The position numbers and the translations under genes were made by a program. Source: Squalus acanthias (lineage: Eukaryota). Taken from it: a DNA stretch of 64,000 nucleotides. Below the pieces are notes generated by a model, which did no database searches, had not been told where the DNA came from, and worked only from the letters and a program-made list of their open reading frames with translations. Below, one piece after another: positions 3,597-64,000 of the stretch. The stretch is from positions 1,178,001 through 1,242,000 of the forward strand of contig CM059432.1 of the NCBI GenBank assembly GCA_030390025.1. The letters run 5' to 3'. How positions within the stretch are numbered: the first letter of the stretch is position 1; each line of letters starts with the position of its first letter.

Positions 3597-4020
3597 AAAG
3601 AAAGACATGCATTTATATAGTGCCTTTCATGACCTCGGGATGTCCCAAAGCCCTTTACAGCCAATTAATTACTTTAGTCTTGGTTATAATGTAGGAAACG
3701 CAGCAGCCAATTTACACACAGCAAGCTCCCACAAACAGCAATGTGATAATGACCAGATCATCTGTTTAATTGATGTTGGTTGAGGGATAAATATTGGCCA
3801 GGACACCGGGTAGAACACCCCTACTCTTTTTTTCAAAATAGTCCTGTGGGTTCTTTTACATCCACCTGAGAGGGCAGACAGGGCCTCGGTTTAACGTCTC
3901 ATCCAAAAGACGGCCCCTCCGACAGTGCAGCACTCCCTCAGTACTGCCCCTCCGACAGTGCGGCGCTCCCTCAGTACTGCCCCTCCAACAGTGCAGCGCT
4001 CCCTTAGTACTGCACTGGAC
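3597..4020 (-). mobile_element. DeuSINE (SacSINE1-like) with 3 tandem 33-bp units
   Basis: Deu-domain core (rc cagtgcagtactgagggagtgctgcactgtcggagg...gttaaaccgaggccc) and L2-like tail; same family as 41550-42060. Confidence 0.8.
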
Positions 4021-9969: not shown

Positions 9970-10387
9970 TAATTTTAACTAGAATTTGAACCCTTCACCA
10001 TTTGTGAGCATTTTGCTTGGATTAACTATTAATGAGCTTCGAATAATCTTTCAAGCTTGGGTCACTTTGAAGTCTCAAAGTGGAACAAGTCAGCTTCCTG
10101 AATCCTTTCTCTCAATTTTGAATTTCTGATACTGGAATAATCTTCATTCTTCACCTCTCATGTCTTCCAGGGCAGTAGTATCCTTTTTGTGGTTGGGTAG
10201 CCAGAATTATGTGTAGCCCGCCAGATGGCATGAAACCAGTGCCTCGTTACAGCACATTCTGCATTCATGTGTAAGCTAGTCTTGTGTTTATGAATTGAAA
10301 CCTTCCCCTTCTCATTCTCCTTCCCCCAAGCTGGTCTCTTGAGATTTACATCTTCTGTAGTGATTTAGTGAAACAACAAGAAAGAAT

Positions 10388-11109
10388 TTAACCACCGCCC
10401 CATGACATTCAACGGCATTACCACCGCCGAATCCCCCACCATCAACATCCTGGGGGGGGGTCACCATTGACCAGAAACTTAACTGGACCAGCCACATAAA
10501 TACTGTGGCTACAAGAGCAGGTCAGAGGCTGGGTATTCTGCGGCGAGTGTCTCACCTCCTGACTCCCCAAAGCCTTTCCACCATCTACAAGGCACAAGTC
10601 AGGAGTCTGATGGAATACTCTCCACTTGCCTGGATGAGTGCAGCTCCAACAACACTCAAGAAGCTCGACACCATCCAGGACAAAGCAGCCCACTTGATTG
10701 GCACCCCATCCGCCATCTTAAACATTCACTCCCTCCACCACCCTGTGGCTGCAGTGTGTACCATCTACAAGATGCACTGCAGCAACTCGCCAAGGCTTCT
10801 TCGACGGCACCTCCCAAACCTGCGACCTCTACCACCTAGAAGGACAAGGGCAGCAGGCACATGGGAACATCACCTCCTCCAAGTCACACACCATCCTGAC
10901 TTGGAAGTATATCGGCCGTTCCTTCATTGTCGCTGGGTCAAAATCCTGGAACTCCCTCCCTAACAGCACTGTGGGAGCACCTTCACCACACGGACTGCAG
11001 CGGTTCAAGAAGGCGGCCCACCACCACCGTCTCGACGCCAATTAGGGATCAGCAATAAATGCCGGTCTTGCCAGCGACGCCCACATCCCATGAACTAATA
11101 AAAAAAAAA
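10388..11109 (+). mobile_element. CR1/L2-group LINE (second family, A-tailed), 3' fragment
   Basis: AGQRLGILRRVSHLL...IYKAQVRSLMEYSPLAW ORF2 C-terminus plus A tail; other copies at 12690-13099(+), 20195-20943(-), 53140-53475(-), 55480-55626(-). Confidence 0.85.
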
Positions 11110-11489: not shown

Positions 11490-11606
<117 letters not shown>

Positions 11607-14394: not shown

Positions 14395-14544
<150 letters not shown>

Positions 14545-15269
14545 TAATTTTTTTTTTAAAGAAGCAAATGCATTCTATAATAGTATCCTGTGTCATGTAC
14601 TGATAAATACAGGCCATCAATATGCTGCATGATCCAGATCTGAAGATATCCCGGATTTGCAGATCAAGATTTGTTGCGTGTAAAGTAATATGGAATAAAT
14701 TCACTCGTTTCAAGTTTGAGTTTTTTAACGGCCATTTTTTCCCCTAAGCAGAGTCTTTAAAAGATTTTAAAAATACCTTTGTAGATTATTAGTTCAGCAA
14801 CGCAGTTGGCAGAGAACAAGCCTTGTATGTACAATAAATCTGCATTCTTAGAATGGTCAGGGCAGATTTTTTTAAAAAGTAGAAACCACTCATTCTCAGA
14901 TCGGCCCCCATTTCTCGTGCTTGTGTTCTATCTGGTTACTGGCTATGATGAATATTCCTTCAGGCTGAAGTATAGGATCTAGAACTCTGCTATTTGACCC
15001 CATTCCAGTAAGATAAATATATACAAAAAAGAAATTGCCTACTTTGGTAGTGTTTTGTCTGTCTTCAAAGAAGCATCTTCCACATGCTGTTGGAATGTCC
15101 CGGCGCTGGGACGCACTCTTGGAAGAATCATGAAGAGGGACTGCCTCCCTTCAAGACTTTTTTGTGATATTGTAACATTACTAAGTCTGAGGTGATCCTT
15201 CCTTACCCATAAAAGGTAAGCTCTGCCCTTTAGATGTCCTAGTTCTTATTAAAACAATTACTCTCTCTC

Positions 15270-17645
15270 ACCCTGACCATTCCCCCTGATATGGCCCTCA
15301 TCTTCGCTCCCTTAAGTCCAAGGGATGCAGACTTGAACGGATATGGCGGACAACTGGTTTAGCCATTCACCGCCAGATCTGGCATTATCGGGTCCTGTGC
15401 TCGTTTGCCCAAATTGCTCACTATTCCAGAATCATTCTGGAATGCAAAGATAAACCCTGGTTCCTATTCTCTACTGCTAACCGTCTTCTTAAACCCCTCT
15501 CCCCTCACCTCCAACAACAAGTGTGAGGATCTCATGGACTTCTTTGTCTGTAAGATTGAGACCATCCGTTCAGCTGCCTCTGCCACTTCCCTTCCTTCCC
15601 TTAGCCCACCGGGCCAAACTTCCTCTAAGGTTCCCGCCTGCCCTAGCCCTGAACTCGCATCTTTCTCCAGTTTCTCTCCGATTTCCCCTCATGACCTCTC
15701 TGCGCTCATCTTGTCCATGAGAGCCACTTCCTGTTTCCTCAACCCTATTCCCACCAAACTGCTGACTGCCCAACTTCCTCTTCTGGCTCCCACGTTAGCT
15801 GACATTGTTAACAGTTCTCTTCCCTCAGGTACTGTCCCCCCTCTCCCTCAAATCTGCCGTCATCACCCCTCTCCTCAAAAACCAACCCTTGACCCCTCCG
15901 TCCTTGCAAACTACCGCCCCATCTCAGAATCACAGAATCCCCACAGTGCAGATAGAGCCCATTTCGGCCCATCGAGCCTGCACCGACACACATCCCACCC
16001 TATCCCCGTAACCCCACGTATTTAATCCCCCCTAACACTAAGGGTCAATTTATCATAGCCAAATCAACCTAACCCGCACATCTTTGGACTGTGGGAGGAA
16101 ACCGGAGCACCCGGAGGAAACCCACGCAGACACGGGGAGAATGTGCAAACTCCACACAGACAGTCACCCGAGGCCGGATTCGAACCCAGGTCCCTGGCGC
16201 TGTGAGGCAACAGTGCTAACCACTATGCCACCATGTTGCCCAACCTCCCTTTCTTCTCCGAAGTCCTTGAACGTGTTGTCACCTCCCAAATCCGTGCCTA
16301 TCTTTCTCGTAATTCCATGTTTGAATCCCTCCAATCAGGTTTCCGCCCTTGCCACAGTACCGAAATGGCCCTCATCAAAGTCACAAATGACATCCTTTGT
16401 GACTGTGACAAAGGTAAACTATTCCTCCTCGTCCTTCTTGACTTGTCTGCCGCCTTTGACATGGTTGACCACTCCATCCTTCTCCAATACCTCTCCACCG
16501 TTGTCCAGCTGGGAGGGACTGCACTCGCCTGGTTCAATTCTTATCTATCTATTCGTAGCCAGAGAATCACCTGCAATGGCTTCTCTTCCCGCTCCCGCAT
16601 CGTTACCTCTGGTGTCCCCCAAGGATCTATCCTTGGCCCCCTCGTATTTCTCATTTACATGTTGCCCCTTGGCGACATCATCGGAAAACACAGCGTCAGT
16701 TTCCACATGTACGTGGTCGGCACCCAGCTCTACCTCACTACCACTTCTCTCCACCCCTCCATGGTCTCTAAATTGTCAAACTGCTTGTCCGACATCCAGT
16801 TCTGGATGAGCAGAAATTTTCTCCAATTAGATATTGGGAAGACCGGAGCCATTGTTTTCGGTCCCCGCCACAAACTCCATTCCCTGGCCACTGACTCCAT
16901 CCCTCTCCCTAACATCTGTCTGAGGCTGAACTACACTGTTCGCAACCTTGGTGTCATATTTGACCCTGAAATGAGCTTCCGACCACATATCTGCAGCATA
17001 ATTAAGACCGCCTATTTCCATCTCCGTAACATCGCCCGTCTCCACCCTTGCCTCAGCTCATCCGCTGCTGAAACCCTCATTCATGCCTTTTTTACCTCTA
17101 GACTTGACTATTCCAACGCTCTCCTGGCCGGCTTCCCACATTCTACCCTACGTAAACTTGAGGTGATCTAAAACTCGACTGCCCGTGTCCTAACTCACAC
17201 CAAGTCCCGCTCACCCAGCACCCCTATGCTCGCTGACCTACATTGGCTCCCGTTTAAGCAACGCCTCGATTTCAAAATTCCCATCCTTGTTTTCAAATCC
17301 CTCGATGGCCTTGCCCCTCCCTATCTCTGTAATCTTCTTCAGCCCCACAAACCCTCCCCCCAACCCCCGAGATATCTGCGCTCCTCTAATTCTGCCCTCT
17401 TGAGCATCCCTAATTATAATCGCTCCACCATTGGTGGCTGTGCCTTCTGTTGCCTAGGCCCTAAGCTCTGGAATTCCCTGCCTAAATCTCTCCGCCTCGC
17501 TACCCCTCTTTCCTCCTTTAAGACGCTCCTTAAAACCTACCTCTGACCAAGCTTTTGGTCACCTGCCCTAATTTTTCCTTATGTGGCTCGGTGTCAAATT
17601 TTTTGTCTTTTAATACTCATGAGAAGCGCTTTGGGACGTTTTACG
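15270..17645 (+). mobile_element. L2 LINE, 2.4-kb 5'-truncated ORF2 (RT), interrupted by a SINE
   Basis: ANYRPIS/NLPF, QSGFRPCHSTEMAL, LLDLSAAFDMVDH, GVPQGSILGP, RNLGVIFD, LHWLP; active site mutated (YVVG), premature stop at 17171. Confidence 0.93.
15925..16240 (-). mobile_element. HE1-like V-SINE (tRNA head, V core, CR1-like tail), full length
   Basis: rc begins ggcaacatggtggcatagtgg (A box)...gggttcgaatcc (B box), V-domain tgtgtggagtttgcacattctccccgtgtctgcgtgggtttcctcc, tail attctgtgattctg; splits L2 NYRPIS|NLPF. Confidence 0.88.
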
Positions 17646-17659
17646 CCACCGCCTTCAAA

Positions 17660-20600
17660 CCACCAGAAATAATATATCATCTATTCCCCGAAAGGCATAT
17701 GGGGATGGATGGGAGTATGGAGTGTCATGTGTGATGGAAGAGTGGAAGTGTAGTGTGTGGAAGGTGCTTCTTAAACACAGACTCCGATCAAGGTAGGTAA
17801 TCTTCCTTCTACAGGGTGCATCTTCCATACACACACACACACACCGCTAAAGTCTAACAAAGTCGTGCAGGACTTGGAGATGGGGAAGTCTTTATGGGGA
17901 ACAGACACTCCAGCTATTAATAGACATGCCAAATTGGCATAGGCTAGGCAGTTTGCTTAACAGAGGTGGGCAGACTACTCCATGTTGCCACATGATAAAT
18001 GCCATGATGGATACTTGCTTCAGTGCTGCCCAAGAAGTAGCCATGGAGCGGAACTTCACCAATCCTGAAGGATTCCTGTTAGGAAGGTAATGAGTGATGC
18101 TGTCCACAAGCTACTAGGCAAGTCCCAAATTAATTAATCATTTAACCCACCCCCCAGGGTTCTGAGGCCATAAAGAGACAAAAATTTGATTCGAGCTGCA
18201 AGGACTTGGTGCAATCAGTGTAACAAGTCAAAGCTCATTGGGCGTTGATGCAATGAAAGTGGTGATCAGACTCCTATCAGAAGCCACTTTCGGCAGGCAC
18301 TTGGAGTTTTTAAGCAGTTCTGTGCAGATCTGCAGTCCCTGGATCGATCTCTCTTTTTGTGCTAAAACCAAGGCTGCAAGAGTTTATTTCCAGGTAAGAA
18401 GTTTCAGTTTGCACATTGCAATGGACTCAAGGTGGCATCCACCAATTTTTGTAAAACTAAATTCAAGTCTTGAAGGGACTGGAAGGGGAAATTTGGAGAT
18501 AATTGTTGAACTCTCACCCACACCTCCCCCATGCTGCATGAAACTAGAGAGAAACGGAAGAGAAATCAACTAAACCATAGTAGGACATGTTGTGAAAATT
18601 GGATGCAGCTGTGACATGAACTCAAATCAAAGTTGGTTTGAGATGAAGGTTGAAGGTATCCTAGAACTGATGTCAATCTTTCTTCTGTGAGGAAGTGTCA
18701 TTGGAATAACACCACTGTATGAATGTATCCTAGCTTGTATTGTAATTCCTGAAGGTTTTTAAGAAGTCAACTATTGAAGATAGTAAAGCTTAGTTTAAGA
18801 ATTGTTCTCTACAGCTACGTTTTCAGCAAAAGCATGTTGGGTCTGGGTGAACAATCTGGTATGATAGTTCAGAGAGACTACCTCTCCTGTGAGGGACACT
18901 GATCAACAATTGTATATCTCAACACCAAAGCTTCCGATGCCTCTGCTCTGCTTGGATTTTCTGTAATCTTGCGGATGAGGGGAAAGGATGCAAAAGCATA
19001 AAGAAATCTTTGCGCCCAAGAGGACAGGATGATCTGTCCCTTGTCCAAGAGCAAAACTGAGGGAACTGGCGATTGTCCGGCAGAGGAAAAAATTGATTTC
19101 CAGGTATCCTTATGTTCTTAAGATGACTTCACAGTGGCTCTTCCACTTGAGAGTGAACTTTTGTTTGACAGAACGTCAATAGTTGTGTCAGTATTTCCGA
19201 GATTGTCACCCAGTGGTTTAAAGCAGCAATGAACACGTAGTATTGTGTCTTGACAGGGCTACCCTACTGTTATAGATGCTATTTATATACCAGAAAACTG
19301 TTCTGTTGCTTGTCCAGAAGTGCAGTGATTTAACCTGCACCAGAGTCTCAATGTAGAAAGGTGAAATCTATTGCTTGGTTTTAATTATGCAATGTGGACC
19401 AGGTGGCATCCATTGGTCCCAGACTCCATCGTAAAAGGTTGGTGTCCAATGCAGACTGAGATACACCTGTCACTGAGAGTTGAAGAGAGGTTGGTGGGAG
19501 TAGAACACCTTGAAACGCATGTTCCTGAGCCCATGACCTCTGGTCTGAAACACGAGGCTCGACCTATTTGCATACGTTAAGACAAAAGTGACCTGTAAGA
19601 GTAACACTGCCGCAGCAGCTTGAACTGAAGTGATCTCAAATGGTCATCCATTTGGCACAGGAAAGATTGTTTGCTGGCGGCAACCAAGAACACAGAGATG
19701 TTGTTCTCCATTATCTTGGATCCTCCTTGGAAAGGAAACCCCTTCGCTTGAATTTATCTGTTGGGCAAGAAGGTTTAATCCAGAACAGTCCAGAAAAAGA
19801 GCCCCAAGAATCTCAGCTCCTGTGATAGCCCAGGTGAGACTTACAAGTGGTCAATGAAACCGAATTCCTTGAGGGAAACAAAAATGTACTGGACAAAAGA
19901 CTGTTTGGACAGAGCTCCCTATTGTCATTTAGCTATGGGTAGACTAGTAGACGTCTCATTTAGAATTGTACCGTGACCGTTGACCAGTATTTTTTAACTC
20001 TGTGGAGGCAGAATGGGGAGCATTTTATATTAAAATTAATAACCTGAAAATGATACCCTATATAACTTGGATGACTTGGGTGCAATGCAATGTGGAAAAA
20101 AAGCATCTTTTAGGTAAATAATGCCTGCCAGTTTCCTAAATAATTACAGGTAGTGTAATTATCTTGAACGTCTCCTGGTGAGGATACTTGTTTGTTTTTT
20201 TTATTCGTTCATGGGATGTAGGCGTCGCTGACCAGGCCAGCATTTATTGCCCACCCCTAATTGCCCTTGAGAAGATGGTGAGCCACCTTCTTGAACCGCT
20301 GCAGTCCGTGTGGTGAAGGTACTCCCACAGTGCTGTTGGGGAGTTCCAGGATTTTGACCCAGTGACGATGAAGGAACGACGATATATTTCCAGGTCAGGA
20401 TGGTGTGTGACTTGGAGGTGATGGTGTTCCCATGCGTCTGCTGCCCTTGTCCTTCTAGGTGGTAGAGATCGCAGGTTTGGGAGGTGCTGTGGAAGAAGCC
20501 TTGGCGAGTTGCTGCAGTGCATCTTGTAGATGGTACACACTGCAGCCACAGTGTGCCAGTGGTGGAGGGAGTGAATGTTTAAGGTGGTGGATGGGGTGCC

Positions 20601-23600
20601 AATCAAGCGGTCTGCTTTGTCCTGGATGGTGTTGAGCTTCTTGAGTGTTGTTGGAGCTGCATTTACCCAGGCAAGTGGAGAGTATTCCATCACACTCTTG
20701 TGCCTTGTAGATGGTGGAATGGTTTTGGGGAGTCAGGTGGTGAGACACTTGCCGCAGAATACCCAGCCTTTGACCTGCTCTTGTGGTTACAGTATTTATG
20801 TGGCCGTTCCAATTAAGTTTCTGGTCAATGGTGACCCCCAGGATGTTGATGGTGGGGGATTCGGCAATGGTAATGCCGTTGAATGTCAAGGGGTGGTGGT
20901 TAGACTCTCACTTGTTGGAGATGGTCATTGCCTGGCACTTGTGTTTAGAGCTATGGGATCTGAAATAGGGCAGAGCCCTCGTAGATTCCTTTTGAGGATC
21001 ATAAAATAGCGTTAGTAAAATGCATCTTTTTCTTGACTAGGGTGAACCTATTTGATTGTCAACAGAAGATCGCTTCTTCAACCAGTACCTCCTTTAATAA
21101 ACAGGTGCTCTCTGAGCAGACTTTACAATTCGTGAAAACATGGGTGATGGACTGACGATGGAGCGGATGACTTTGAAGGATCTCTTGGGACTTGTATATC
21201 TGATGTGATCCTTTCCCATTTTGTTACATAGTGTATCAAGTGACTTCTATTCCCATCGTCCCCGACCCCCTGCCTGGCAAGCTGGTGAGTCAGGAAAAGT
21301 GCCAGTTCTGGGTTTTTGTGGCAGGAGCTAGAGGTGTGGTGTGTCTACATTGCCCATTTGCAGAGGAGTGGAACTAATGGATAGCTCTTTCAAAGAGCCG
21401 GTACAGGCGCGATGGGCTGAATGGCCTCCTGTGCTGTATCATTCTATGATTTGCACGTTGGGAGCAGCTGGCCTGTTTCCTACACACATTGCTTGAATAA
21501 TCAGACTCCTTGCTGGTATTTCTAACTTTAAATTGGTTGGAAAGACACAATATTCTGCTGGTTATGGTCCTAATGCAGCCTATAGACAAAAGTCTGCCAT
21601 TACATAATTAAGCTGGAAGAGCTTGAAGCCGCTGTTAATGTTTGTGATACTTAGGCAGCCGTTGACATTCAAGGGCAAATTTAGCAACTGAAGCTATAAA
21701 TTATAAGTTGAACCAGCAAGTCACAACCAGGCTAAATGACCCAAGTAAAATTGAATGTTCCAGTGTGTCTAAGAAATCGATGGCAATCTATTTCTAAATT
21801 GAGGTAGTGTGCAAAATATCTACTATCGAGGAGAAAAATATAAATTTGCCAATCTAGTCAGAGGTTTTAATTAAAACTTAAAGCTGCTATGTCTTCTGAT
21901 GAAAGAAGCTACCTAGTGAATCTGTTGACATGATTTCCTATTGCACCATGTCCTGTGCAAAGATTCTATGTCCCCATGAATACAGACGCTTGGATTTATG
22001 AACGGGAGGCATGGGATCTAATTCCTGTATAGCTACCACAGAGAAATCCATAGCTGGAATGAGTAGAGTGCTTTAATAGTTGTGTGGTAAATGCAATCTA
22101 TTTTGGTTGTATCTGAGGGTCTACTTACAATGATCTCCCCCATAACCGCTATATGTAAATACAAAAGGAGAGCGGGGTGGAGGGGAAAGCATCCCCACAG
22201 AAGGCCTTTTGAGAAACCTGGAGCGACTGCTCAATTCCTGGCTGATGTCTATCCAAAAGCTATCACCTCCAAAAACCACCGTGGCATCAGACATCTTTGG
22301 CTTCTGATCCTGTGTTGGATCTGGAAGATGCAGTGTGACAATCTCCTCTTCCTTATCTTGTTCCAGCTTCAGATCTCAAATGTCCATTTGTGGGGAGCAG
22401 GAGTTGGTTGGAGAATTTTATAGGAGCCACTAACAAAGCAGCAATGAGAAGACCTTGTTTAATTATTGGGTTGGTTAGCTTGGCCACAACCAGATGGACT
22501 AGACGTGTGTATTTAATTTTCAACAATCCCGGCAGTTCCGAGGGGCTGCTTTTTCTTTCACCTAGGGATGGAAACTTGATGGAACTCGACATTGTCTACG
22601 AACTTAATTTGCTTCTAAGCCAGCTGAATTTTGAGAATTCATGTTTTTCTCTGGAAAAGGGTTTAATTTTGTGGCAGGATTGCCTTCTGGCGAAGGGGAG
22701 ACTACCGCACTACTCTTGCGACCAAAATCAGGTTTCTGATTGATACAAACTCCTCTAATTAACGTTGATATCAGTGGATGAAAACCCATGTTTGGATATC
22801 CTGGATGCAAGGTTGGGGGGGGGGTGGGGGTGGGGGGAGGGTGGATCCAAGACCAACCTGATTGGGGAGGAAAGATATGTTGGATGTCTTGGACTGTTTC
22901 ATTAGATAAAATCAAAAAACTTCTCCAGCTGAATGAGAGTTCTGAATGTGGATCCTGGTACCCTGGCTGTATGGGAACAGGGCAGTCATCAACTTTTGTT
23001 TCAGCTCAAGTACAAGTCCGCATGGAAGCTAGTCAGTCTTGCCTTAATTCTGGAAATTAATTTCTGTATGCATTTCGTCAGTTTCCCCTGATCTTAAGAA
23101 GATGCTGCAGAAAATCTGTAGAGGGCTTGAAGTAATTTGCATAACTACCTGTTTGCTTCAGAAACTGTTTCTTGGACATCCTGACATTGAGCAGTGCCTG
23201 CCTGATTCCACTACCCTCCAGGAGGCTTCTGATTGGTTGAATCCAGATCCAGATCCAGTAAGCTTCCGATTGACTGCCCAGCTGCCAAAAAAGGGATAGT
23301 TAGACCAAGGCCTACCTCTATCTGTAGTTGATAGTTTACTGGCTTAATGTAAGTCATCTAAACTGTACTTAACCGAACCAAGCAGAAGAAGTTGTTGTGC
23401 AAAGTCTTAGTCCTCTCTCCTGTGGTGTACCTTCCATCCTAGAATAGTTACATCATCTTTTCAACATGCAACTGAAATCCAGCTCTTTGCGTTTAATTTA
23501 CCCCAGTTGTGATCTTCCGTGAGTCCCCTGCATCGGGTTCATTAGGAGGGCACCATTTAGTACATTGCTTCATAAAGTTAAATCTTGACTAGCCACTTTT

Positions 23601-24310
23601 ACCTAGAATTATGTAGAAATTACAGCACAGAAACAGACCATTTGGTCCAACATATGAGCCTCCTCCAGCCTACCTCATCTCACACTAACAGCATGTCCTT
23701 TATCCCTCATGTACTTACCCTTAAATGCATCTATGCTATTCGCCTCAACCACTCCATGTGGTAGCGAGTTCCACATTCTAACCACTCTTTAATTCCAAAT
23801 TGGAATTTCCATGCGGTTGTACACAAATTGAAGCTTTCATGCCTCTTGTCATGTATGATCTTAAGCATCTGTCATTTAAAATGTCAGTCTTGGTGTCTCT
23901 GGTTTCAGCTCATCAGATTAATAAGTTCCAGGCACCAGTCGTCTCAGCTCTACTTAATCTGGCATTCTGGTTGCTTCTGAGGACGCATCCAAGTTTCCGC
24001 CCAAAGATTGCTTCCCATTTCCTTTGAGGCAAGAAATTGTCACCCCCCCCCCCTCCCCTCATTCTGTCCAACTCATAAATCTGAACTAAGATGCTTGTAG
24101 GGCCATAGTCATTTAATACTAATTGTACCAAGTCCTGCTACCAAACATTGTTTACATTTTGGCCCTAGATCCTAGAAAGACCAGTTTCTAAACACTTCCA
24201 AAATGGGCAGTGGAGTACGTTCTTCGCTGCAGTGACACCTCCAGAAGACCAAGTGGATCCATAGAGGTTGCTTTACCTGTTCCACAGCAGCTACTTGTGC
24301 ACTTATGACA
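17660..24310 (-). mobile_element. Decayed DIRS1-like tyrosine-recombinase retrotransposon, interrupted by later LINEs
   Basis: Minus-strand motifs in DIRS order: WERITSD (~21210), FY*RYFMILKRN..GLCPISD..LN (~20945-21020), LKDAFFHI (~20088-20115), VYP*LND (19924-19944), SQELRFLG (~19800-19825), TSNRTVFWYIN (19278-19316), WAQRFLYAFASFPLIRK (18965-19018), DLNLVLQKL..LKLLTWK (~18385-18470), LPKVAS (~18280), RSMATSWAA/ATWSS (~17970-18052). Boundary beyond ~21400 is uncertain. Confidence 0.85.
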
Positions 24311-24640
24311 TAGAATAGAATCATACAGCTCAGAAGGAGGCCATTCAGCCCATTGTGCCTGTGCCGGCGCTCTGAAAGAGCTACCAATTTGTTCCACTCC
24401 CCTGCCCTTTCCCCACAGCCCTATAAATTTTTCCTTTACGTATTTATCCAATTCCCCTTTTGAAAGTTACTATTGAATCTGCTTCCATCGCCCTTTCAGG
24501 CAGTGCATTCCAGATCATGACTCGCTGAGTAAACACAATTTTCCTCATCTTCACCCCATCCCTGGCTTTTTTGCCAATTACCTTAAATTTGTATCCTTTG
24601 CTTATCGACCCTCTTGCCAGTGGCAACGGTTTCTCCCAGA
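24310..24640 (-). mobile_element. CR1 LINE 3' fragment
   Basis: FTQRVMIWNALPERAMEADS and CR1 tail. Confidence 0.85.
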
Positions 24641-24847
24641 AACTATCAAAACATCTGCAAACCGGTTACATCGAGCAATCCAGATACCATTCCTGAGACC
24701 TTGTGGAGAGTTCATTTTAAAAAAATAATTCTTCTTTGAACCTTAGTGTTGGCCAACGCACATTGTCACCTCTATGCATAGGCCGGCTTTTATACTATGC
24801 AAAAGCCTGAATTGCACAAATCGCTGTCACCTGACATCAAAAACATT

Positions 24848-25392
24848 TTAGAATCATAGACGTTTATGGCACAGGTGGAGGCCATTCAGCCCATCGTGTC
24901 TGTCCCGGCCGCAAAGAGCTATCCAGCCTAATCCCACTTTCCAGCTCTTGGTCCGTAGCCTTGTAGAGGGTTTCTGCCTCTACCACCCTTTCAGGCAGTG
25001 AGTTCCAGACCCCACCACCCTCTGGGTGAAAACATTTCTCCTCAACTCCCCTCTAATCCTTCTACCAATTACTTTAAATCTCTGCCCCCTGGTTATTGAC
25101 CTCTCTGCTAAAGGAAATAGGTCCTTCCTAGCCAATCTATCTAAGCCCCTCATAATTTTATACACCTCAGTTAAGTCTCCCTTCAGCCTCCTCTGTTCCA
25201 AAGGGAACAACCCCAGCCTATCCAATCTTTCCTCGTAGCTAAAATTCTCCAGTCCTGGCGACATCCTCGTAAATCTCCTCTGTGCCCTCTCTAGTGCAAT
25301 CGATCTTTCCTGTACTGTGGTGACCAGAACTGCACGCAGTACTCTAGCTGTAGCCTAACTAGTGTTTTATACAGTTCAAGCATAACCTCCCT
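24848..25392 (-). mobile_element. CR1 LINE 3' fragment
   Basis: LENFSYEERLDRLGLFPLEQRRLKGDL; same subfamily as 40923-41340 and 49700-50455. Confidence 0.9.
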
Positions 25393-25753
25393 TTAAGGGA
25401 ATGTTTCTTTTTCCTGCACTTCCCCAACCCTCCCCCATCCCCCGCCTCACGGATTCCCAAGGATGTGATCCAAGCATCCTTCTTGGTGCCCTCTTTCTTC
25501 CCCCCCACCCCCACACAAAAGAAACCAGAGGTTATTTTCTTGTTTAACTAAAGACAACTAATTTAGAAGCTGTAGTCAGATACACTGATGAGCAGAAAAA
25601 GCAAGAGGAGGATGGAGACTTGCAGCACTGTCTATTTGTGAATAGAAGTTAGCAATTTATTAGTGTTTATTTGGTTGCCTCCCTGCCATACCTGAATAAC
25701 TTGTGGCAGCTATCCTTACTCTGATTATCCTTTACAGAGTTTAAAAACACAAA

Positions 25754-26467
25754 GGGCTAGAAATTGGGCTCCTTAGCTCCTCCAGTTATCGCCTCCGGGG
25801 GGCAATAACGATGTACTGCCCGGGCATGGCGAGATGAACGACTCCTGCTAACTTGGCCAGGAGGTTTGCGGCGGTGGTAACACTCTGCGCCACGATGTCC
25901 TGCGCTTGGAGATCGTGATGTCATTGCCGCGCGTAGCGCCCCAGACCCGAAATTCGGTTCTGCCCCCTGCAGCATCGTCTGGCGAAAACACCGACAGCTG
26001 CAGGAGGCGTTATTCGGGAGGCCGTGCACTTTGGGGGCGGAAGTTAAAGGGGAGGTTGCTGAGGTACATTGGGGGGAAAAAAATTCGGAAATTTTGCTAT
26101 TCTCCTGGGCCACAATCGATCAGCCCGGCACTCTGCTGGAGTGCATGGGGGTGGATCGAGGCTGCCGTCGGGGACCAGCTAACTGGTCCCAATGCAGAGC
26201 CTGCAGCGATGGCCCTTCCCTTTAAGGGAGGGAAGGAGCCTCTGATTGCGGCAGCGCAGCACGGGACATGGTGCAGCACTGCACCTCTGCCGCCCCGCCT
26301 GCGTCCTTTAACGCTCCAGGCAGGAAGTGGAGCACTTGACTTAGCGTTCCACATCCTTCCTGGAGCGCAAACACCAAATTTAGGAAAAATCATTAGCGTC
26401 TGGCACTAAGTTTCCCAGCTTTCAAAAGTTACCGCCCCCAAACGGGGCGAGACCGAATTTCTAGCGC
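25754..26467. mobile_element. Non-autonomous DNA transposon (PIF/Harbinger-like MITE), GC-rich
   Basis: TIRs gggctagaaatt / aatttctagcgc, both flanked by AAA (3-bp TSD). Confidence 0.75.
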
Positions 26468-26859
26468 AAAATTTCTTCAATTGGATTGTTTAATTAGGGG
26501 AGTTGATGTGTTGAATCTTTTAAAACTTGGGGAGATGAGACTTTCCGATCGGTAGTGCCCGGATTTGAACTCTGGAACCAGGGCAAAAGTGTGATATGCC
26601 ATCTGATTCAAAGTGTATCTTTTCAAATTAAAAACATTTCTAATAGAGTCCCGCCAATTGTGTCAGAGGATCCTGATACTGTATATCATTACTGAGTGAG
26701 ACACAGCATTAACATTTCCATAAACCTAATTTACTGTGCACTAAACATTAATCTAAGTTATTTAGGGTATGTTTTCATAACTTATGACTGCCTTTACACT
26801 TCTGTTTCAGTTTTGCTTTGTTTGCTGTACTGCTGTGTAATGAATTTTTGAGCTGATAA

Positions 26860-27060
<201 letters not shown>

Positions 27061-28769: not shown

Positions 28770-29430
28770 CAGACAGCACAGAAGCAGGCCGTTTGGCCCA
28801 TCGTGTCTGTGCCGACTCTTTGAAAGAGCTCTCCAATGAGTCCCACCCTCCCTGCTCTTTCCCCATAGCCCTGCAAATTTTTCCCCTTCAGGTATTAATG
28901 CAATTCCCTTTTGAAAGTTACTATTAAATCTGCTTCCACCACCCTTTCAGGCAGTGCATTCCAGATTATCATAACTCACTGTATAAAAAAAAAAATTCTC
29001 CTCATCTCTCCCTCTGGTTCTTTTGCCAATTATCACAGAATCCCCACAGTGCAGATAGAGGCCATTTTGGTCCATCGAGCCTGCACCGACACATATCCCA
29101 CCCTATCCCCGTAACCCCACGTATTTAATCCCCCCTAACACTAAGGGTCAATTTATCATAGCCAAATCAACCTAACCCGCACATCTTTGGACAGTGGGAG
29201 GAAACCGGAGCACCCGGAGGAAACCCACGCAGACACGGGGAGAATGTGCAAACTCCACACAGACAGTCACCCGAGGCCGGATTCGAACCCGGGTCCCTGG
29301 CGCTGTGAGGCAACAGTGCTAACCACTATGCCACCGTTAAATCTGTGTCCTCTGGTTACCGACCCTCCTGCCAGTGGAAACAGTTTCTCCTTATTTACCC
29401 TTATCAAAAACCCTTCATGATTTTGACCAC
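28770..29430 (-). mobile_element. CR1 3' fragment with nested HE1-like V-SINE (29032-29336)
   Basis: SINE nearly identical to 15925-16240; CR1 sequence ccaatta|ttaaatctgtgtcc resumes across it. Confidence 0.87.
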
Positions 29431-35969: not shown

Positions 35970-36543
35970 ATAGAACATCAGAATTAGGAGCAGGAGTCGG
36001 CCACACGGCCCCTCGAGCCTGCTCCGCCATTCGGCCCCTCGAGCCTGCTCCGCCATTCGGCCCCTCGAGCCTGCTCTGCCATTCGCCCCCTCGAGCCTGC
36101 TCCGCCATTCGGCCCCTCGAGCCTGCTCTGCCATTCGGCCCCTCGAGCCTGCTCCGCCATTCAATAAGATCACGGCTGATCTTCGACCTCATCTCCACTT
36201 TCCCGCCCGATCCCCATATCCCTTGATTCCCTTAGCGTCCAAAAATCTATTGATCCCAGCCTTGAATATACTCAACGACTGAGCATCCACAGCCCTCTGG
36301 GGCAGAGAATTCCAAAGATTCACAACCCTCTGAGTGAAGAAATTCCTCCTCATCTCAGTCCTAAATGGCTGACCCCTTATTCTGAGACTGTGACCCCTGG
36401 TTCTAGACTCTCCAGCCAGGGGAAACAACCTCTCAGCATCTACCCTGTCAATCCCCCCCAGCATCTTGTATGTTTCAGTGAGATCTCCTCTCATTCTTCT
36501 AAACTCCAGAGAGTATAGGCCCAACCTACACAATCTCTCATCA
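35970..36543 (-). mobile_element. CR1 3' fragment with tandem expansion in its 3' UTR
   Basis: RLGLYSLEFRRMRGDLTETYKML...NFFTQRVVNLWNSLP. Confidence 0.92.
36006..36161. repeat. 6 x 26-bp tandem repeat (cggcccctcgagcctgctccgccatt)
   Basis: Units start at 36006, 36032, 36058, 36084, 36110, 36136. Confidence 0.95.
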
Positions 36544-36910: not shown

Positions 36911-37096
<186 letters not shown>

Positions 37097-37962: not shown

Positions 37963-38067
37963 TTCTTCCAGTTAGCTATAAAAGACGAGCTGAGTCGTCA
38001 GAACAATGCGTACATACAGCCGTATGCTTGTTATGAGCTGGGATGCCTGTTGTTGGAGACTCCAGAG
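37963..38067 (+). CDS. TTC39C: TTC39C coding exon
   Basis: gcag acceptor, gtatgg donor; FFQLAIKDELSRQNNAYIQPYACYELGCLLLETPE; 105 nt, phase 0-0. Confidence 0.95.
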
Positions 38068-57115: not shown

Positions 57116-57914
57116 CACCTCCAACACTGCAGCACTCTTTCAGTACTGCCCCTCCGACAGTGTAGTGCACCCTTAGTACTGTCCCTCCAACAGTGCGGCG
57201 CTCCCTCAGTACTGCTCCTCCGACAGTGCGGCGCTCCCTCAGTCCTGACCCTCCGACAGTGCGGCGCTCCCTCAGTACTGTCCCTCCGACAGTGCGGCGC
57301 TCCCTCAGTACTGCCCCTCCGACAGTGCAGCCCTCCCTCAGTACTGTCCCTCCGACAGTGCAGCGCTCCCTCAGTCCTGACCCTCCGACAGTGCGGCGCT
57401 CCCTCAGTACTGTCCCTCCGACAGTGCAGCCCTCCCTCAGTACTGTCCCTCCGACAGTGCAGCGCTCCCTCAGTCCTGACCCTCCGACAGTGCGGCGCTC
57501 CCTCAGTACCGTCCCTCCGACAGTGCGGCGCTCCCTCAGTACCGCCCCTCTGACAGTGCGGCGCTCCCTCAGTACTGCCCCCTCCGACAGTGCAGAGCTC
57601 CCTCAGTACTGCCCCTCCGACAGTGAGGCGCTCCCTCAGTACTGCCCCTCCGACAGTGAGGCACTCCCTCAGTACTGCCCCCTCCGACAGTGCGGCGCTC
57701 CCTCAGTACTGCCCCCTCCGACAGTGCGGCGCTCCCTCAGTACTGCCCCTCCGACAGTGCAGCACTCCCTCAGTACTGCCCCTCCGACAGTGCAGCTCTC
57801 CCTCAGTACTGCCCCACCGACAGTGCGGCGCTCCCTCAGTACTGCCCCTCCGACAGTGCGGCGCTCCCTCAGTACTGCCCCTCCGACAGTGAGGCGCTCC
57901 CTCAGTACTGCACT
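57116..57914. repeat. About 24 x 33-bp minisatellite (ctccgacagtgcggcgctccctcagtactgccc) derived from the DeuSINE core
   Basis: Head-to-tail units without spacers; produces the 11-aa periodic ORFs in the track. Confidence 0.93.
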
Positions 57915-58599: not shown

Positions 58600-61500
58600 T
58601 GTGGGGGATATGGGGGTCTATATACAGTGTGGGGATATGGGGGTCTATATACAGTGTGGGGGATATGGGGGTTTATATACAGTGTGGGGGATATGGGGAT
58701 CTATATACAGTGGGGGGATATGGGGGTCTATATACAGTGTGGGGGATATGGGGGTTTATATACAGTGGGGGATATGGGGGTCTATATACAGTGTGGGGGA
58801 TATGGGGTCTATATACAGTGTGTGGGGGGATATGGGGGTCTATATACAGTGTGTGGGGGGATATGGGGGTCTATATACAGTGTGTGGGGGGATATGGGGG
58901 CCTATATACAGTGTGGGGGATATGGGGGTCTATATACAGTGTGTGGGGGGATATGGGGGTCTATATACAGTGTGGGGGATATGGGGGTCTATATACAGTG
59001 TGGGGATATGGGGGTCTATATACAGTGTGAGGGGGATATGGGGGTCTATATACAGTGTGGGGGATATGGGGGTCTATATACAGTGTGGGGGATATGGGGG
59101 TCTATATACAGTGTGGGGGATATGGGGGTCTATATACAGTGTGGGGGATATGGGGGTCTATATACAGTGTGTGGGGATATGGGGGTCTATATACAGTGTG
59201 GGGGGATATGGGGGTCTATATACAGTGTGGGGGGATATGGGGGTCTATATACAGTGTGTGGGGGATATGGGGGTCTATATACAGTGTGGGGGATATGGGG
59301 GTCTATATACAGTGTGTGGGGGATATGGGGGTCTATATACAGTGTGGGGGATATGGGGGTCTATATACAGTGTGGGGGATATGGGGGTCTATATACAGTA
59401 TGGGGATATGGGGGTCTATATACAGTGTGGGGGATATGGGGGTCTATATACAGTGTGTGGGTGATGGGGGTCTATATACAGTGTGGGGGGATATGGGGGT
59501 CTATATACAGTGTGGGGGATATGGGGGTCTATATACAGTGTGGGGGATATGGGGGTCTATATACAGTGTGGGGGATATGGGGGTCTATATACAGTGTGGG
59601 GGATATGGGGGTCTATATACAGTCTGGGGATATGGGGTCTATATACAGTGTGGGGGATATGGGGGTCTATATACAGTGTGAGGGGGATATGGGGTCTATA
59701 TACAGTGTGGGGATATGGGGGTCTATATACAGTGTGTGGGGGTCTATATACAGTGTGGGAGATATGGGGGTCTACATACAGTGTGTGGGGGATATGGGGG
59801 TCTATATACAGTGTGGGGGATATGGGGGTCTACATACAGTGTGGGGGATATGGGGGTCTATATACAGTGCGTGGGACATGGGTCTATATACAGTGTGGGG
59901 GATATGGGGGTCTACATACAGTGTGTGGGGGATATGGGGGTCTATATACAGTGTGGGGGATATGGGGTCTATATACAGTGCGTGGGACATGGGTCTATAT
60001 ACAGTGTGGGGATATGGGGGTCTATATACAGTGTGTGGGGGTCTATATACAGTGTGGGGGATATGGGGGTCTACATACAGTGTGTGGGGGATATGGGGGT
60101 CTACATACAGTGTGTGGGGGATATGGGGGTCTATATACAGTGTGTGGGGGATATGGGGGTCTATATACAGTGTGTGGGGGATATGGGGGTCTATATACAG
60201 TGTGTGGGGGATATGGGGGTCTATATACAGTGTGTGGGGGATATGGGGGTCTATATACAGTGTGTGGGGATATGGGGGTCTATATACCGTGTGGGGGATA
60301 TGGGGGTCTATATACAGTGTGGGGGATATGGGGGTCTATATACAGTGTGTGGGGGATATGGGGGTCTATATACAGTGTGTGGGGGATATGGGGGTCTATA
60401 TACAGTGTGGGGGGATATGGGGGTCTATATACAGTGTGGGGGGGATATGGGGGTCTATATACAGTGTGTGGGGGATATGGGGGTCTATATACAGTGTATG
60501 GGGGATATGGGGGTCTATATACAGTGTGGGGGATATGGGGGTCTATATACAGTGTGGGGGATATGGGGGTCTATATACAGTATGGGGATATGGGAGTCTA
60601 TATACAGTGTGGGGATATGGGGGTCTATATACAGTGGGGATATGGGGGTCTATATACAGTGTGGGGGATATGGGTCTATACACAGTCTGGGGGATATGGG
60701 GGTCTATATACAGTGCGGGATATGGGAGTCTATATACAGTGTGGGGATATGGGGGTCTATATACAGTGTGGGGATATGGGGGTCTATATACAGTGTGGGG
60801 GATATGGGGGTCTATATGCAGTAAGGGGATATGGGGGTCTATATACAGTGTGGGGGATATGGGGGTCTATATACAGTGTGGGGGATATGGGGGTCTATAT
60901 ACAGTGTGGGGGGATATGGGGGTCTATATACAGTGTGGGGGATATGGGGGTCTATATACAGTGTGGGGGATATGGGGGTCTATATACAGTGTGGGGGATA
61001 TGGGGGTCTATATACAGTGTGGGGGGATATGGGGGTCTATATACAGTGGGGGATATGGGGGTCTATATACAGTATGGGGATATGGGGGTCTATATACAGT
61101 GTGGGGGATATGGGGGTCTATATACAGTGTGGGGGATATGGGGGTCTATATACAGTGTGTGGGTGATGGGGGTCTATATACAGTGTGGGGGGATATGGGG
61201 GTCTATATACAGTGTGGGGGATATGGGGGTCTATATACAGTGTGGGGGATATGGGGGTCTATATACAGTGTGGGGGATATGGGGGTCTATATACAGTGTG
61301 GGGGATATGGGGGTCTACATACAGTGTGTGGGGGATATGGGGGTCTATATACAGTGTGGGGGATATGGGGGTCTACATACAGTGTGGGGGATATGGGGGT
61401 CTATATACAGTGCGTGGGACATGGGTCTATATACAGTGTGGGGGATATGGGGGTCTACATACAGTGTGTGGGGGATATGGGGGTCTATATACAGTGTGGG

Positions 61501-64000
61501 GGATATGGGGGTCTATATACAGTGTGTGGGGGATATGGGGGTCTATATACAGTGTGTGGGGGTTATGGGGGTCTATATACAGTGCGTGGGACATGGGTCT
61601 ATATACAGTGTGGGGATATGGGGGTCTACATACAGTGTGTGGGGGATATGGGGGTCTATATACAGTGTGGGGGGGATATGGGGGTCTATATACAGTGTGT
61701 GGGGGATATGGGGGTCTATATACAGTGTGTGGGGGATATGGGGGTCTATATACAGTGTGTGGGGATATGGGGGTCTATATACCGTGTGGGGGATATGGGG
61801 GTCTATATACAGTGTGGGGGATATGGGGTCTATATACAGTGTGTGGGGGATATGGGGGTCTATATACAGTGTGGGGGGGATATGGGGGTCTATATACAGT
61901 GTGGGGGATATGGGGGTCTATATACAGTGTGGGGGATATGGGGGTCTATATACAGTATGGGGATATGGGGGTCTATATACAGTGTGGGGGATATGGGTCT
62001 ATATACAGCCTGGGGGATATGGGGGTCTATATACAGTGCGTGGGACATGGGTCTATATACAGTCTGGGGGATATGGGGGTCCATATACAGTGCGGGATAT
62101 GGGAGTCTATATACAGTGTGGGGATATGGGGGTCTATATACAGTGTGGGGATATGGGGGTCTATATACAGTGTGAGGGATATGGGGGTCTATATACAGTA
62201 TGGGGATATGGGGGTCTATATACAGTGTGGGGGATATGGGGGTCTATATACAGTGTGGGGGATATGGGGGTCTATATACAGTGTGGGGGATATGGGGGTC
62301 TATATACAGTGTGGGGGATATGGGGGTCTATATACAGTGGGGGGATATGGGGGTCTATATACAGTGTGGGGGATATGGGGGTCTATATACAGTATGGGGA
62401 TATGGGGGTCTATATACAGTGTGCGGGATATGGGGGTCTATATACAGTGTGGGGGATATGGGGGTCTATATACAGTGTGTGGGGGATATGGGGGTCTATA
62501 TACAGTGTGGGGGGATATGGGGGTCTATATACAGTGTGGGGGATATGGGGGTCTATATACAGTGTGGGGGATATGGGGGTCTATATACAGTCTGGGGATA
62601 TGGGGGTCTATATACAGTGCGTGGGACATGGGTCTATATACAGTGTGGGGGATATGGGGGTCTATATACAGTGTGGGGGATATGGGGGTCTATATACAGT
62701 GTGGGGGATATGGGGGTCTATATACAGTGTGGGGGATATGGGGGTCTATATACAGTGTGAGGGGGATATGGGGGTCTATATACAGTGTGAGGGCGATATG
62801 CGGGTCTATATACAGTGTGGGGGATATGCGGGTCTATATACAGTGTGGGGGATATGGGGGTCTATATACAGTGTGGGGATATGGGGGGCTATATGCAGTG
62901 TGGGGATATGGGAGTATATACAGTGTGTGGGGGATATGCGGGTCTATATACAGTGTGGGGGATATGGGGGTCTATATGCAGTGTGGGGATATGGGAGTAT
63001 ATACAGTGTGTGGGGGATATGCGGGTCTATATACAGTGTGGGGATATGGGGGTCTATATACAGTGTGGGGGATATGGGGGTCTATATACAGTGTGGGGGA
63101 TATGGGGGTCTATATACAGTGTGGGGATATGCGGGTCTATATACAGTGTGGGGATATGGGGGTCTATATACAGTGTGGGGGATATGGGGGTCTATATACA
63201 GTGTGGGGGATATGCGGGTCTATATACAGTGTGGGGATATGGGGGGCTATATGCAGTGTGGGGATATGCGAGTATATACAGTGTGTGGGGGATATGCGGG
63301 TCTATATACAGTGTGGGGGATATGGGGGTCTATATACAGTGTGTGGGGATATGGGGGTCTATATACAGTGTGTGGGGGATATGGGGGTCTATATACAGTG
63401 TGTGGGGGATATGGGGGTCTATATACAGTGTGTGGGGATATGGGAGTCTATATACAGTGTGGGGGATATGGGGGTCTATATACAGTGTGAGGGGGATCTG
63501 GGGGTCTATATACAGTGTGAGGGGGATATGCGGGTCTATATACAGTGTGGGGGATATGGGGTTCTATATACAGTGTGGGGGATATGGGGGTCTATATACA
63601 GTGTGGGGATATGGGGGTCTATATACAGTGTGGGGGTTAGGGGGTCTATATACAGTGTGGGGGATATGGGGGTCTATATACAGTGTGGGGGATATGGGGG
63701 TCTATATACAGTGTGGGGATATGGGGGTCTATATACAGTGTGGGGGATATGGGGGTCTATATACAGTGTGGGGATATGGGGGTCTATATACAGTGTGGGG
63801 ATATGGGGGTCTATATACAGTGTGGGGGATATGGGGGTCTATATACAGTGTGGGGATATGGGGGTCTATATACAGTGTGGGGATATGGGGGTCTATATAC
63901 AGTGTGGGGGATATGGGGGTCTATATACAGTGTGGGGGATATGGGGGTCTATATACAGTGTGGGGATATGGGGGTCTATATACAGTGTGAGGGGGATATG
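58600..64000. repeat. G-rich minisatellite, consensus 28-bp gtgtgggggatatgggggtctatataca, more than 5.4 kb, runs off the window end
   Basis: Continuous tandem array with unit-length variants from G-run and GT slippage. Confidence 0.98.

Follow-up and report, generated by a model that had tools for sequence, protein, structure and literature searches.

The best-described elements to which the present locus can be compared are the DIRS-1 retrotransposon of Dictyostelium and the DIRS1-like elements of vertebrates. In its published description, Dictyostelium DIRS-1 requires its internal complementary region (ICR), needed by an active element to rebuild its ends, and produces from its RNA a cDNA that is single-stranded and mostly linear (PMC7192593). 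The same account presents integration by a tyrosine recombinase (YR) as a model and the preference of new copies for existing DIRS-1 copies as an older observation, and it describes the target choice of the recombinase as being without experimental test (PMC7192593). A short core common to the ICR halves and the terminus is a described DIRS pattern (PMC3266345), and DIRS is among the superfamilies reported as present in chondrichthyans (PMC4350176). DIRS1 gag sequence is also described as having been domesticated, in the LAP2alpha exons of TMPO and in ZNF451 (PMC4495291). Our search of the open literature, with Repbase and most subscription papers outside its scope, turned up nothing published on the locus itself or on DIRS families of sharks.

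The window analysed here is a 64,000-nucleotide stretch of Squalus acanthias DNA, and within it we are confident that one intron contains a pair of broken, oppositely oriented DIRS1-like copies whose 5' sides face each other. Both are likely old insertions that have lost their 5' parts, and their decay since then has likely been neutral. As far as the DIRS1-like elements of teleosts, Xenopus, and the anole are described (PMC3266345, PMC9210276; our reference loci L015, L020, and L011), the locus shares their order of RT, RNase H, methyltransferase-like (MT) region, YR, ICR, and terminal repeat, together with an ICR of ~95 nt, a short core in the ICR halves and terminus, and a T-rich end. Unlike those elements, it consists of two partial copies in opposite orientation, in which neither a clear gag nor a left repeat was found, and relative to a teleost-type profile consensus the copies retain ~25-33% identity with all frames broken. 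The ICR of Dictyostelium DIRS-1 is given as a short left and a longer right half of 33 + 55 nt, close to the ~35 + 60 nt seen here, and its reported preferential residence in other DIRS-1 copies has a possible parallel in the two adjoining copies of this locus; that element is active and abundant (PMC7192593), whereas the copies described here are dead, single-copy, and located in a gene intron. The domesticated gag sequences of TMPO and ZNF451 likewise represent DIRS1-like sequence in a host gene, but at this locus no open frame, purifying selection, or exonisation was seen (PMC4495291).

The host intron and two opposed DIRS1-like remnants

The host is a TTC39-family gene, as the initial annotation had it: 3 of 5 candidate exons match Pfam PF10300 in profile order, and such exons flank the pair. 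The paralogue is presumably C (TTC39C). Two more likely host exons were picked up by the splice scan at 36930-37027 and 37963-38067 and have no Pfam match.

11490-11583: host exon; PF10300 match, in order with the others
14414..14522, plus strand: host exon upstream of the pair; PF10300 E 1.4e-9, profile positions 310-344, AG/GT borders
26909..27018, plus strand: host exon downstream of the pair; splice scan, PF10300 E 0.05, profile positions 359-391

Profiles for the frameshift-aware comparison were built from reference loci obtained by a degenerate YR-motif scan of metagenomes, which yielded 26 loci; 16 of these carried the motif in a DIRS-like frame, and the other 10 were dropped as chance matches. 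After exclusion of the near-duplicates L004, L027, and L022, the pol profile comprised 14 pieces and the YR profile 22 pieces, drawn from 13 loci, a small set of teleost-type elements, and all alignments used a purpose-built frameshift-aware aligner with its own scoring scheme. L015 and L020 contain gag, RT-RNase H-Dam-like, and integrase-like ORFs (Pfam RVT_1, RT_RNaseH, and Dam), and an ICR palindrome or ICR-terminus inversion is present in L015, L005, and L024. These metagenome loci look like host fish DNA, judging from gag relatives named from cyprinid fish. L015 and L027, each a whole contig of ~5.8 kb at modest coverage in a metagenome assembly, represent nearly complete DIRS elements whose ORFs are open and which possess inverted ends and an ICR; they are likely host DNA. 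The viral-contig locus L001 was dropped, its E of 1e-4 being relative to candidates only and no DIRS motif being present, and a motif scan of viral contigs gave 0 matches.

The coding remains identified with these profiles are as follows.

18829..21047, minus strand: copy 1 pol (RT, RNase H, and methyltransferase-like), broken; profile alignment
17956..18756, minus strand: copy 1 tyrosine recombinase, broken; profile alignment
23050..23300, plus strand: copy 2 methyltransferase-like remnant; weak profile match at 23064-23234 and DNA match to copy 1
23400..24310, plus strand: broken tyrosine recombinase of copy 2; profile-scored over 23400-24021 and carried on to ~24300 by DNA similarity to copy 1

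On the minus strand, the pol alignment runs from 21047 to 18829 at 44.3 bits, with 124 of 490 columns identical to the profile consensus in a frameshift-aware count, and it passes through 15 frameshifts and 9 stops and spans a 753-nt insert. The YR alignment from 18756 to 17956 reaches 49.5 bits (81 of 262 columns identical, 5 frameshifts, 5 stops). None of 60 shuffles attained either score, the maxima being 23.0 bits for pol and 21.3 bits for YR, and both alignments scored above reversed, complemented, and shuffled controls at all three penalty settings, while every 4-kb tile of the window outside the DIRS region stayed at or below 22.8 bits with the same profiles. RT is represented from profile column 69 onward at 21047-19900, with a decayed catalytic motif, and the RNase H and MT-like parts continue colinearly to column 613 at 18829, the domains having been scored jointly. 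Copy 1 extends from ~22700 or less down to 15026. The longest stop-free run at the locus is at most 84 codons in the 12 frames checked, and neither copy appears able now to make protein or to move. Judged by its sequence, copy 1 is a real, DIRS1-like, and dead element.

These alignments bear out the DIRS1-like identity and domain order, antisense in the intron, that had been proposed from short motifs read across broken frames. Of 16 quoted motif strings, 14 occur exactly, on the minus strand and in the order given; LKDAFFHI is not a single string but is split over two frames, and the first position of RALTCYTDCTKS, quoted as R, is a stop. WERITSD is present at 21218, outside the scored alignment. 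The expectation that colinear DIRS matches would be recoverable on the minus strand held with the newly built profiles and failed with single-frame searches: Pfam returned no relevant family for any of 12 frames with X at stops (one spurious DUF1079, E 0.07), phmmer gave 0 matches for one 866-residue frame against 1.84 billion proteins, and word-index searches with the YR frame gave 0 of 375 and 0 of 5 candidates. An atlas search with the plus-strand YR stretch produced no usable match.

The second YR lies on the opposite strand. Positions 23400-24021 score 53.6 bits on the plus strand (0 of 60 shuffles as high) against 17.3 bits on the minus strand, a result that is robust at all three penalty settings, and this YR also matches copy 1 at the DNA level with a score of 78 (shuffle maximum 57). 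Its alignment contains a 178-nt insert, and ~25 nt of it near 23765-23790 fall within the inserted repeat and may be spurious. Past 24021, the profile score of the C-terminus is equalled by 9-20 of 100 shuffles and falls short of significance, as does a suggestive YR tail at 24623-24688. Upstream, the MT-like remnant scores 24.1-24.6 bits, a level reached by none of 60 and by one of 100 shuffles, but under stricter penalties (2 of the 3 settings) it no longer exceeds them; its DNA match to copy 1, which supports it, scores 71, again with a shuffle maximum of 57. RT, RNase H, an ICR, and terminal repeats of copy 2 were not found by profile, hairpin, or DNA comparison, and we file copy 2 as a DIRS-like fragment rather than a full DIRS1-like member.

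The strand of this second YR bears directly on the initial annotation, which saw one 6.6-kb element at 17660-24310 with gag in 21400-24310. Gag would be expected upstream of RT, where a weak gag-like match does occur at 22691-22620, but 23050-24310 belongs to a separate DIRS fragment on the other strand and the 3' end of copy 1 lies at ~15026, so that a single element with these limits is scarcely credible. Nor is it probable that copy 2 arose as an inverted duplication of the 3' half of copy 1 after insertion. Both copies have MT followed by YR, and their colinear DNA similarity exceeds that of shuffles, as a duplication would predict; however, they have the same residue in only 28 of 135 shared YR columns and agree at 160 of 405 bases, far below the roughly two-thirds identity between ICR and terminus in copy 1, and at places where copy 1 shows gaps against the fish profile, copy 2 matches it. 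This low YR agreement suggests that copies 1 and 2 are probably separate insertions, and we rate duplication as very unlikely, if slightly less so than the single element.

The ends of copy 1 and its candidate gag

17745..17840 (approximate), minus strand: internal complementary region, imperfect palindrome of ~95 nt; hairpin scan, fold, and reference layout
15026..15088, minus strand: 3' terminus of copy 1, the outermost part of its right terminal repeat, with a T run at the end; matches the right ICR as its reverse complement
15089..15260, minus strand: likely remainder of this right terminal repeat, its inner limit being approximate; placed between terminus and LINE
21452..22700, minus strand: single-copy stretch, candidate 3' part of copy 1 gag; weak 24-codon match

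A terminal or ICR region had been guessed at 17660-17830, and a palindrome was indeed found at ~17840-17745, ~115 nt past the last aligned YR codon of copy 1. It is the second-best hairpin locus in the 12.4-kb intron, folds with a z of −2.0 (4 of 200 shuffles equally good), and has the layout of the reference elements L015, L005, and L024. In its right half the palindrome aligns, inverted, with 15026-15088 at a local alignment score of 53 (shuffle maximum 43; 0 of 40 whole-window shuffles as high), and because of this match we place the 3' end of copy 1 at ~15026, 2.6 kb beyond the earlier limit of 17660, from which it has been displaced by a LINE. The identity between ICR and terminus is roughly two-thirds, and a short core is common to both ICR halves and the terminus at 15026-15088.

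These ends also bear on whether the locus derives from another YR element, such as Ngaro, a PAT-like element, or Crypton. The DIRS1-like assignment rests on domains and ICR layout, not on a tree, and no significant match to a left terminal repeat of copy 1 was found in 17860-26900, which leaves some room for such an origin. The relation of ICR to terminus is inverted, however, and not one of split direct repeats, and no Ngaro-type split direct repeats were found in 15-27 kb; an MT-like region is present, whereas Ngaro is described as lacking one (PMC9210276), and RT is present, whereas Crypton is described as a DNA transposon (PMC3212892). For copy 2, the points against this origin are the YR and the weak MT match. 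We regard any of these other elements as a most improbable source, and continue to treat the pair as DIRS1-like.

An exact 11-nt ICR core at 22322-22332, in the orientation expected of a left terminus, has an expectation of 0.055 per window and does not extend (35 of 300 shuffles as good). If this core were the real left terminus, then copy 1 would measure only ~4.1 kb without its inserts. The inverted pair 21360-21430/24335-24405 was rejected as a terminal repeat, being a high-copy repeat. For gag, a profile assembled from 131 stretches in 120 fish proteins gave a weak match at 22691-22620, of 20.4 bits over 24 codons only, with 0 of 60 shuffles as high in a narrow region and 4 of 60 in a wider one; matches to a first gag profile had been rejected as proline-rich noise.

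Proposed history of the pair

Both copies may have arrived by active DIRS1-type insertion, through cDNA and a tyrosine recombinase, with the missing 5' parts subsequently removed by a deletion across the junction, at ~22400-23050. Two insertions followed by such a deletion would fit a back-to-back pair in which both 5' parts are missing. At this one locus, nesting of one copy in the other and chance neighbourhood would look alike. On a more ambitious reading, the pair would mark where one DIRS element integrated into, or up against, an older one from a different family, by the self-targeting noted for Dictyostelium DIRS-1, and would record an extinct, uncatalogued cartilaginous-fish DIRS lineage that survives as single-copy fossils invisible to repeat finders based on copy number; we consider this conceivable but rather doubtful. 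The two copies are likely an ordinary long-dead genomic fossil, their back-to-back layout a mild curiosity.

If back-to-back DIRS pairs proved common in the lineage, they would provide evidence, if indirect, of how the DIRS recombinase chooses its targets. More generally, the locus shows that intron sequence of this genome may look unique and yet be DIRS debris of great age, a point relevant to annotating repeats and estimating transposon content, and the orthologous fossil could be used as a neutral marker when related species are compared.

Younger repeats, copy depth, and decay

Copies 1 and 2 are cut by five younger repeats.

15260..17644, plus strand: younger LINE between ICR and 3' terminus, left limit approximate; RVT_1 E 9e-17 at 16266-17180
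20188..20944, minus strand: LINE 3' fragment inside RT; 753-nt alignment insert, 89% to 10374-11107
21360..21452, unstranded: short high-copy repeat fragment; up to 10 overlapping window matches, depth
23590..23790, unstranded: repeat fragment in copy 2 YR, limits approximate; 178-nt insert, window copies at 23675-23788
24315..24637, unstranded: high-copy repeat that interrupts copy 2 close to where its YR ends; window copies and contig depth

Three of these interruptions, at 20188-20944, 21360-21452, and ~23590-23790, had been recognised at the outset and recur here, and the great relative age ascribed to the sequence agrees with the window copies and contig depth of the repeats that interrupt it. 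The LINE at 15260-17644, presumably L2-type, has copies elsewhere in the window at 78-88%. Nested in its RT is a recent short repeat of 304 nt (15929-16232), 98% identical to 29032-29335.

In an independent DNA run (organism A), depth is ~4-14 for bins that lie entirely within the DIRS parts, as against 10^5-10^6 in the inserts, and the LINE fragment at 20188-20944 has a summed contig depth above 10^6. The low depth of the DIRS parts implies that the genome contains no close relative of either copy, and with single-copy depth and no single-frame matches it is plausible that the pair escapes standard repeat masking. Contigs of organism A cover 18032-20218, 20916-21401, 21424-22829, and 22821-23633, and there are loose contig ends at 23788, in the copy 2 YR insert. 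The overlap at 22821-22829 is only 9 letters and falls at a G run; this G-rich stretch, 22813-22845, lies near the junction of copies 1 and 2, and contigs of the DNA run break there.

Contigs of organism C over 17743-19952 show 129 other letters and 80 gap letters in ~2,200 (~6% different), and those over 23832-24110 show 13 other letters and 6 gap letters; cover is sparse over 21010-23600, and no listed C contig reaches non-DIRS intron. The organism C sequence is likely orthologous, and the pair would then predate the split from that organism. A run of organism B contributed two 190-nt pieces with zero differences, which are uninformative on age. Of the 24 listed differences from organism C that fall in the YR frame, 9 are synonymous, where 28% would be expected in the absence of selection; this comparison rests on 24 sites, and there is no sign of coding selection in this frame.

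These differences also speak to whether the sequence might have been domesticated, as coding or exonised sequence, in the manner described for DIRS1 gag in mammalian TMPO and ZNF451 (PMC4495291). Its intronic position and retention in organism C are compatible with a host function, as is a single contig of 362 nt, found at depth 2.1 in a run presumed to be RNA. Among RNA data, none was listed as carrying the sequence, which counts neither for nor against expression. At so low a depth, however, an intronic piece is in keeping with pre-mRNA or DNA, and no frame is open beyond 84 codons, while the differences from organism C look neutral and include the 80 gap letters. Domestication accordingly has almost nothing to recommend it, and neutral decay of two dead copies is the reading we retain.

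Elsewhere in the host intron, a GC-rich segment at 25755-26470, whose two ends match in inverted orientation and which contains internal hairpins, resembles a non-autonomous DNA transposon, and the best hairpin score in the intron falls at ~26280-26400. Tandem repeats are also found in the window: six copies of a 26-nt unit, 95% alike, at 36006-36162; a 33-nt array with 24 copies at 57118-57911 and 3 copies at 3913-4013; and a 28-nt satellite of at least 192 copies that occupies 58600-64000 and runs off the window end.
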